Below are positions 2,329 through 2,524 of a stretch of 9,839 nt of DNA, in pieces. The DNA comes from a virus (Duplodnaviria; Heunggongvirae; Uroviricota; Caudoviricetes): positions 1 to 9,839 of IMG/VR virus record IMGVR_UViG_2531839531_000010; one strand, written 5' to 3'. The position numbers and the translations under genes were made by a program. Below the pieces are notes generated by a model. That model worked only from the letters and a program-made list of their open reading frames with translations. It did no database searches and had not been told where the DNA came from. Numbering within the stretch: position 1 is the first letter of the stretch; the number at the start of each line of letters is the position of its first letter.

Positions 2329-2340
2329 CACATCCCCGTC

Positions 2341-2365
2341 AATACGGTTCTTGCTGCACGCTTAC
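2341..2365. repeat. Putative right terminal inverted repeat of the IS66-family element (inner boundary uncertain)
   Basis: The outer end ...CGCTTAC at 2359-2365 is the reverse complement of GTAAGCG. The left inverted repeat is outside the window, so the pairing cannot be confirmed here. Confidence 0.45.
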
Positions 2366-2379
2366 GGCAAGGAGAAGTC

Positions 2380-2517
2380 GTGTTTGATTTTAGCAAACTG
2401 ATTCGGGAGATTCGAGTTATGGCTGAAAAATTATCCACCTGGAAGTTTTTGCTTATTTGGTTGGTCTTTCTGATTCTGGCGTCTGGTTATTTTGTTGGCC
2501 AGATCCGATGGTGGTGA
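2380..2517 (+). CDS. Small hydrophobic protein (45 aa from GTG 2380, or 32 aa from ATG 2419); may be a real small membrane protein or the C-terminal remnant of a gene interrupted by the IS
   Basis: Not in the supplied ORF track (too short). AAGGAG (2369-2374) lies 5 nt upstream of GTG 2380, and GGGAGA (2405-2410) lies 8 nt upstream of ATG 2419. The translation ...MAEKLSTWKFLLIWLVFLILASGYFVGQIRWW has one hydrophobic helix-length segment. The TGA at 2515-2517 sits 7 nt before the next gene's ATG. Confidence 0.3.
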   Translation: MFDFSKLIREIRVMAEKLSTWKFLLIWLVFLILASGYFVGQIRWW

Positions 2518-2524
2518 GGGCACG

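Follow-up and report, generated by a model that had tools for sequence, protein, structure and literature searches.

The stretch of DNA analysed here (hereafter the window) comprises 9,839 nucleotides of a virus of the Caudoviricetes (IMG/VR record IMGVR_UViG_2531839531_000010, positions 1 to 9,839). Its left part is taken up by an insertion sequence (IS) of the IS66 family, which ends at position 2365 and is followed by phage DNA that opens with a small open reading frame (ORF) of 45 codons, a baseplate gene and, farther on, tail-fibre genes. The features at and around the junction are as follows.

1..2365, plus strand: IS66-family IS, the right 2365 nucleotides of 2442 bp, by alignment to full copies
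16..396, plus strand: tnpA, IS66 accessory protein (NCBIfam NF047595, 97.7 bits, cut-off 74)
393..740, plus strand: tnpB, IS66 accessory protein (NCBIfam NF033819, 120 bits, cut-off 50)
790..2328, plus strand: tnpC, IS66 DDE transposase of 512 residues (NCBIfam NF033517, 460 bits, cut-off 180)
2344..2365, plus strand: right terminal inverted repeat with the end ...CGCTTAC (2359-2365), by comparison with the left end of full copies
2366..2373, no strand: GGCAAGGA, the octamer with which the phage DNA begins and candidate target-site duplication, read from the sequence
2369..2374, plus strand: Shine-Dalgarno (SD) sequence AAGGAG, 5 nucleotides before the GTG at 2380, read from the sequence
2380..2517, plus strand: small ORF of 45 residues with a GTG start, MFDFSKLIREIRVMAEKLSTWKFLLIWLVFLILASGYFVGQIRWW, by the phrog_6632 profile and relatives
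2405..2421, plus strand: internal GGGAGA (2405-2410) and then ATG at 2419 (Met14), a possible second start for a 32-residue form, by conservation
2525..2872, plus strand: baseplate gene of 115 residues in the gp25/W (sheath-initiator) position, 7 nucleotides after the small ORF (phrog_7986, E=1.6e-64)

The arrangement is very probably the outcome of an IS66 transposition into the leader of a conserved small-gene cassette in a prophage resembling phage Rac-SA53, the small ORF being an intact phage gene; putative steps of target duplication, altered expression and action at the cell envelope complete this explanation.

The element itself is an ordinary member of the IS66 family in its tnpA-tnpB-tnpC layout, its GTAAGCG repeats and its habit of making 8-bp duplications. 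The assignment to IS66 had been made in the original prediction from the letters of the window, and is upheld by three Tnp proteins above their NCBIfam cut-offs and by the terminal repeats. The RefSeq annotation of identical IS copies agrees with the tnpA call, and Pfam DDE_Tnp_IS66 matches are recorded for TnpC. Over its full length the IS stretch is 99.9% identical to the copies in the enterotoxigenic Escherichia coli strains E24377A and H10407. Nine other full copies from complete genomes are all 2442 bp long, start with GTAAGCGTACAGCC, end with GCTGCACGCTTAC and pass into unrelated flanks. Their ends read GTAAGCG...CGCTTAC, and the right repeat of the window is complementary to their left end, GTAAGCGTACAGCCTGAACCGT, at 19 of the 22 terminal positions. 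The length of 2442 bp is presumably that of ISEc8 in ISfinder, a name for which the papers gave no confirmation. The first 77 nucleotides of the IS, with the left inverted repeat, and everything further left lie outside the window. Shared with the family are the three-gene layout, the repeats and the 8-bp duplications at other copies; the window copy differs in two private substitutions within tnpC (at 1568 and 1581), found in none of the copies compared, and in an insertion site that is absent from 5,426 complete E. coli genomes. The exact TnpC variant of the window occurs in one contig only within an index of 153 billion genes (AQFE01000023.1, 98 kb, of assembly GCA_000356625.2). That contig starts 2 bases before the window, inside the IS; because its TnpC sequence is unique to one contig, the assembler could extend through most of an otherwise multicopy IS.

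The right end of the IS, placed at 2365 in the original prediction, is confirmed by the common end GCTGCACGCTTAC of the nine full copies and by the homology to IS-free prophages, which begins at 2366. Alignments of the window with such prophages (F9792, 214-4 and phage Rac-SA53) run from 2366 rightward and diverge completely leftward. A megablast search of window positions 2200-3000 against the 5,426 complete E. coli genomes returned several with uninterrupted phage sequence, matching from 2363-2366 on at 99.5-100% identity, and none with the window junction. Pattern scans for the right junction, GCTGCACGCTTAC joined to GGCAAGGAGAAGTCGTG, gave no match in IMG/VR, the GTDB representative genomes or the JGI metagenomes. 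The empty site in the relatives consists of the stop of a 237-residue baseplate spike gene, the terminator AAAGCCCCGAACTGTTGCAGCAGTCGGGGCTTTTTGTTT, and then CTGGCCTTGAATAA joined to GGCAAGGAGAAGTCGTG. The spike gene is named bppV in Rac-SA53 (V-like, 237 residues) and has a weak GpV Apex match; a homology search with its product returned a 95%-identical representative as the sole hit. The terminator is a strong hairpin with A- and T-tracts at its flanks. The octamer GGCAAGGA occurs once in the empty site of the IS-free relatives, as ...CTTGAATAA joined to GGCAAGGAGAAGTCGTG. The insertion point thus read from the relatives lies 3' of the terminator hairpin, 3 nucleotides 5' of the SD sequence and 14 nucleotides 5' of the GTG. 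Because the frame of the small ORF is closed in the empty site by a TGA 18 nucleotides 5' of the GTG, the IS landed in an intergenic leader and split no gene.

The original prediction had described the small ORF as unlisted, with a frame open from 2329 through 2517 and a strong AAGGAG that overlaps 2366-2373 and serves the GTG at 2380. The frame and the SD sequence are present as described: the translation of 2302-2530 reads ...PTE, stop, HIPVNTVLAARLRQGEV, VFDFSK...RWW, stop, with a TAA at 2326-2328 and then a TGA at 2515-2517. The ORF is unlisted in RefSeq/PGAP, where the IS-free relatives F9792 and 214-4 have no coding sequence at the site; GenBank phage records list it, under the names rac58 in phage Rac-SA53 (KU052037) and EC_CP1639_39 in phage CP-1639. 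Gene callers also call it in at least 38 blocks of a public contig collection. The window protein and rac58 have the same sequence and their genes the same position (spike, ORF, 115-residue gene), and in all IS-free relatives the start, SD sequence and stop are identical to those of the window. Reconstruction of the uninterrupted locus from these relatives, which the original prediction had proposed, returned the same conserved small ORF.

Residues 1-45 match positions 1-45 of the 45-position phrog_6632 profile (E=2.1e-28, 98.9 bits), and the window protein is no different from the other members of this family, rac58 and EC_CP1639_39 included, which RefSeq usually leaves unannotated. At 90% identity the profile searches yielded about 80 clusters, and at 50% identity 76 representatives; the members, all named hypothetical, belong to Escherichia, Salmonella, Enterobacter, Citrobacter, Klebsiella, Providencia and P. 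aeruginosa. The best-conserved part is the N-terminal motif DFSKLIRE.R.M, which precedes the single hydrophobic helix. Residues 2-13 are conserved, and they therefore support the GTG start. The helix spans residues 24-42 (nucleotides 2449-2505) with a mean hydropathy of 2.16, and only three residues follow it; the protein has no cysteine. The N-terminal 22 residues are charged, with a net charge of +2, from which an N-in/C-out topology is predicted. Met14 is invariant in 21 family members, and every distinct lineage has GAG as codon 10, so that a GGAG or GAGG stands 8-9 nucleotides before the ATG of Met14. A second start at Met14, giving the 32-residue form, is therefore possible on the strength of this conservation. 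The ORF is present once per phage record in 53 of 53 phage records with a match. Two tandem copies (3732-3869 and 4001-4144) were observed in a metagenome scaffold (ERZ28600448; locus L030), where the first is preceded by the canonical hairpin and leader and starts with GTG, the second starts with ATG, differs at the N-terminus and lacks the hairpin, and a further two tiny ORFs lie between the second copy and the W-like gene.

The question of whether the ORF is translated at all was weighed against these comparisons. Relative to the homologues of Stx phages there are 10-11 synonymous codon differences and five non-synonymous ones, all five being L/I/V/M exchanges, and the nucleotide homology to these phages (87% identity) spans exactly the SD sequence to the stop codon. 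By this pattern of codon substitution the ORF shows the signature of purifying selection. The conserved entity could in principle be an RNA or DNA element (terminator and leader) or a recombination linker between phage modules, with the ORF left untranslated. Such an element would suit the non-coding hairpin and leader, whose conservation from E. coli to Pseudomonas is about equal to that of the ORF, and the occurrence of the cassette at mosaic boundaries in several phage types. It does not suit the strong bias of the substitutions to synonymous sites and conservative hydrophobic exchanges, nor the homologues in other genera, down to 42% identity, which at 42-50% identity still retain the amino-acid motifs, the frame, the length and the position of the stop; the hairpin and leader, moreover, gave no Rfam match. 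We regard an untranslated ORF as very improbable.

Three readings of the ORF had been put forward in the original prediction, of which the first, a genuine small membrane protein of the phage, is borne out by the phrog_6632 match, the relatives and the signs of selection. The second, a C-terminal stub of a longer phage gene split by the IS, draws on a frame that is open for 51 nucleotides 5' of the GTG, into the IS, and on versions of 65-72 residues given by some gene callers in other genomes. In the empty site, however, the DNA upstream is the terminator hairpin and the in-frame TGA closes the frame, which rules the stub out; the 65-72-residue calls read back through the hairpin with extensions that are not conserved, and all homologues keep a GTG or TTG start at the same point with the SD sequence in the same position. 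We therefore give this reading next to no credence. The third, a fusion driven by outward transcription from the IS, is ruled out at the level of translation by the in-frame TAA at 2326-2328. The IS neither created, truncated nor fused the small ORF, which is, as judged from its sequence and its relatives, an intact phage gene for a predicted 45-residue single-pass inner-membrane protein of phrog_6632.

With the right junction exact to the base, the mode of insertion can be considered. In the account that we favour, the 2442-bp element would have transposed into a Rac-SA53-like prophage of the E. coli draft genome GCA_000356625.2, landing in the 5' leader of the small-gene cassette between the V-like spike gene (237 residues) and the W/sheath-initiator-like gene (115 residues). 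Simple transposition would have duplicated GGCAAGGA, a second copy of which would then be expected against the missing left end of the IS, giving the predicted left flank ...CTTGAATAAGGCAAGGA followed directly by GTAAGCG. The 8-bp duplication habit on which the original prediction relied is indeed a property of this element: perfect direct repeats flank seven of the nine other copies, equivalent to six of eight independent sites. Judged from this sample of other copies, an intact GGCAAGGA duplication at the window insertion is likely. The left junction itself lies outside both the window and the contig, so that a simple insertion with duplication is something we infer, and this counts against the account, as do the two of eight independent sites without a duplication, by which rearrangement is not rare for this IS. 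At one of these exceptions (L016) the IS abuts another IS66 end, and at the other (L031) the left flank is common with that of a further locus (L033) and the right flank is different; both have the appearance of secondary IS-IS events. The predicted left junction, TTTCTGRCCTTGAATAA and GTAAGCGTACAGCCTGAACC with 0-30 nucleotides of any sequence between them, had no match in IMG/VR, the GTDB representative genomes or the JGI metagenomes, and a synthetic left-junction query had none in the complete E. coli genomes.

The two exceptional sites are also part of the case for a different course of events, in which the insertion was accompanied by an adjacent deletion, an inversion or IS-IS recombination on the left, so that no GGCAAGGA would stand there and the upstream part of the prophage (spike and tail genes) would be lost or elsewhere. 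The source contig does break inside the IS, and large deletions are present in the same prophage in related strains of the sequencing series (L010 and L012). Yet a contig break in a multicopy IS is expected of short-read assembly and is uninformative on rearrangement, the other six sites are simple insertions with perfect 8-bp repeats, and the precision of the right junction likewise argues for simple insertion. On balance a rearrangement appears unlikely, while keeping some weight. As to the two deleted prophages (GCA_000354555.2 and GCA_000354515.2; locus at about 1400-5900), the deletion is internal and joins the lysis genes, a ParB_N gene and a TAGT-domain gene directly to a truncated gene of 188 residues just 5' of the spike gene; the head genes and most tail genes are missing.

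The small ORF and the DNA preceding it form a recurrent unit. All 16 homologous loci inspected display an A-tract, a GC-rich hairpin, a T-tract, a leader of about 25 nucleotides, an SD sequence and a non-ATG start. The leader follows the pattern TTTCTG.CCTTGA...GGCAAGG, the SD position is held by AAGGAG, GGGAG or GAGGAG in 16/16 loci, and the start codon is GTG in enterobacterial phages and TTG in Pseudomonas. RNAalifold recovers the hairpin, in which three stem pairs have compensatory changes; it also pairs TTTCT with the SD sequence, without covariation. The A- and T-tracts on both sides of the hairpin suggest that the terminator could act in both directions. Hairpin and leader belong to no Rfam family, and no promoter for the small ORF, antisense included, was detected by a sigma-70 consensus scan of an IS-free relative and the window. 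As for features of type I toxin-antitoxin systems, in which a small hydrophobic toxin is paired with an antisense RNA whose gene has a promoter of its own and overlaps or adjoins the toxin mRNA, the consensus scan gave no promoter-like site on the minus strand, and there was no Rfam match. The IS splits the cassette between the terminator and the SD sequence, so that the SD sequence and the ORF are left without the hairpin and the 5' portion of the leader.

The cassette takes three kinds of position, all within late operons. The first is the slot between endolysin and i-spanin genes, in at least six cassette types, where the small ORF ends 1-22 nucleotides before the start of the spanin gene; the second is in baseplate modules and the third in tail modules.

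Stx phages, CP-1639 and E. albertii: Phage_lysozyme, ORF, Rz
E. fergusonii: GH19, ORF, DUF2514
Enterobacter: GH19, ORF, an overlapping pair of genes of 92 and 63 residues
E. coli: Peptidase_M15_4, ORF, Rz or DUF2570/LysC
Salmonella phage SPN3UB: endolysin, ORF, Rz/Rz1
Window lineage, Salmonella phage SEN34 and other E. coli prophages: spike, ORF, sheath initiator (W-like), Baseplate_J
P. aeruginosa prophages: ORF among small unnamed genes between gpK-like and distal tail genes

In CP-1639 (L014, 2368-3150) the cassette and Rz come after stx1B, with two minus-strand ORFs between in place of any holin or endolysin gene; the link of the small ORF to Rz is thus kept even though the remainder of the lysis cassette has been replaced.

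The small protein would accordingly be pictured as an accessory protein of the inner membrane, expressed late and active at the envelope. No other single role is as likely as one alongside the lysis machinery, which we hold tentatively; it is favoured because the endolysin/spanin slot, the exact position of the cassette in most other phages, is fixed across unrelated cassettes, the terminator lies upstream and the ORF has no promoter of its own. The closest positional analogue is LysA of phage P2, in the order endolysin, LysA, LysB/LysC, the small ORF occupying the same slot before an i-spanin gene (LysB/DUF2570, Rz or DUF2514). The two have no sequence similarity, and whereas P2 LysA is larger and has several helices, the small ORF has 45 residues and one helix and occurs also in baseplate and tail modules. 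Dual starts are known from holin/antiholin pairs, and the GTG of codon 1 with AAGGAG, together with the invariant ATG of codon 14 with GGAG, recalls this dual-start motif; the size and single helix of the small protein are atypical of a holin. A spanin was considered and rejected. An i-spanin has an N-terminal transmembrane helix and a long periplasmic coiled coil, and an o-spanin a lipobox with a cysteine; the small protein, at 45 residues, has a C-terminal helix with three residues beyond it and no cysteine, and is encoded 5' of separate spanin genes. It is a rather doubtful, more specific proposal that the 45-residue ORF and its hairpin make up an uncharacterised, horizontally mobile late-gene cassette, with an obligatory non-ATG start, that could encode, in two forms, a new factor for the timing of lysis or for an envelope step, either antiholin-like or spanin-associated.

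A function outside lysis was also weighed, namely that the protein is a prophage-expressed accessory gene (moron) such as a superinfection-exclusion or membrane-modifying factor. HK97 gp15, a superinfection-exclusion membrane protein, is likewise a small inner-membrane gene among tail genes in a variable accessory region, and the small ORF is a membrane-protein gene in hot spots for variable accessory genes, with Ant, Rha, LprI-like and HSDR_N genes in neighbouring slots; the P. aeruginosa copy sits among small uncharacterised genes of the tail module. The small ORF differs from a moron of the HK97 gp15 type in having no detected promoter, a terminator upstream and the next late gene close by, and the two have no sequence similarity. 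A classical moron carries a promoter of its own and is followed by a terminator, and the small ORF was rejected as one by definition: the sigma-70 scan found no promoter-like site of its own and the strong terminator lies upstream of it. With its end 1-22 nucleotides before the next late gene, the layout predicts late rather than lysogenic expression, and there was no PADLOC match. We consider an accessory gene of this kind improbable.

Several further points tell against the explanation of the locus as a conserved cassette for an envelope protein. The small protein matched no Pfam, NCBIfam or PADLOC model, and the literature on Rac-SA53, the peptide and small proteins of lysis cassettes yielded nothing that mentions it. 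The lysis role is deduced from gene position only, and a lysis protein would be unexpected in the baseplate and tail-tip modules that also contain the cassette. Strong prediction of a hairpin that would occlude the SD sequence is confined to the SEN34-type and SPN3UB homologues and does not extend to Stx phages. The small ORF and the W-like gene of STEC005 are separated by a Rha gene, so that coupling of the ORF to the downstream gene is not obligatory.

The position of the IS bears on how the small ORF and its neighbours would be expressed. By cutting off the small ORF and all baseplate and tail-fibre genes beyond it from the late transcript that arrives from upstream, and from the cassette terminator, the insertion would make their expression dependent on read-through of the 2.4 kb IS, from either antiterminated late transcription or tnpC transcripts. 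Polarity on these genes would be the expected effect. Antitermination suppresses IS polarity, and antiterminated late transcription through the element could relieve it. A contrary outcome would be that the IS drives expression of the ORF, through a TnpC-ORF fusion or through outward or read-through transcription, so that a gene normally expressed late became constitutive in the lysogen. In favour of this, the ORF is read in the direction and frame of tnpC, the DNA from the tnpC stop to the end of the IS is free of terminator-like sites with 5 or more pairs, and the insertion removed the cassette terminator while leaving the SD sequence intact. But with the TAA at 2326-2328 no fusion protein can form, no outward promoter-like site at the IS end or junction emerged from the consensus scan, and IS transposase transcripts are generally weak, which counts further against it. 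IS-driven expression therefore seems to us unlikely, although transcriptional read-through from tnpC into the ORF is, from the sequence between them, possible.

IS66-family insertions in prophages are common, and the event in the window is routine and private to the strain. In one prophage it probably cripples or re-wires the way in which the baseplate and tail-fibre genes are expressed. For annotation, its value is that the 45-codon gene is real, widespread and routinely left out by RefSeq. A by-product is a set of tiny membrane proteins, a small family with about 76 representatives at 50% identity, that are encoded behind a conserved terminator and leader. Were it true that the cassette modulates lysis or passage of the envelope, a component would be added to the well-studied lysis cassettes of Stx phages; nothing here shows that the terminator and small-protein cassette constitute a new kind of system.

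Beyond the small ORF, the 115-residue protein in the gp25/W position has no Pfam match itself, and its positional counterpart in related baseplate modules matches Pfam Sheath_initiator (PF10934). Between this W-like gene and Baseplate_J lies a low-GC island (2873-4222), with 34-38% GC versus about 50% around it. A promoter-like site within it (2964-2993, TTGACA-18-CAAAAT) precedes an ORF at 3007-4182, whose product of 391 residues has type I restriction HSDR_N domains, belongs to phrog_4225 ("endonuclease") and has no PADLOC match; it is possibly a stand-alone nuclease or a defence gene, as judged from its domains. Related prophages have Ant, Rha, LprI-like or unnamed genes in the same slot, and because the occupants differ among relatives, the slot is regarded as a hot spot for variable accessory genes in the baseplate operon. 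Among the records compared, PP818812.1 ("Actinobacillus phage vB_Apl-pPE4") has 96.7% nucleotide identity to the present E. coli prophage region, the same level as Rac-SA53; its host assignment looks doubtful from this identity, or else the transfer would have been very recent.

The right end of the window (6056-9839) holds two consecutive tail-fibre sets. The first consists of a fibre of 461 residues and a Caudo_TAP chaperone of 181 residues (7444-7989); the second is a fibre of at least 608 residues that has a phage_tail_N domain and runs off the end of the window. Between the two sets lies a minus-strand ORF of 43 residues (7991-8122), which is also called as a gene in relatives.

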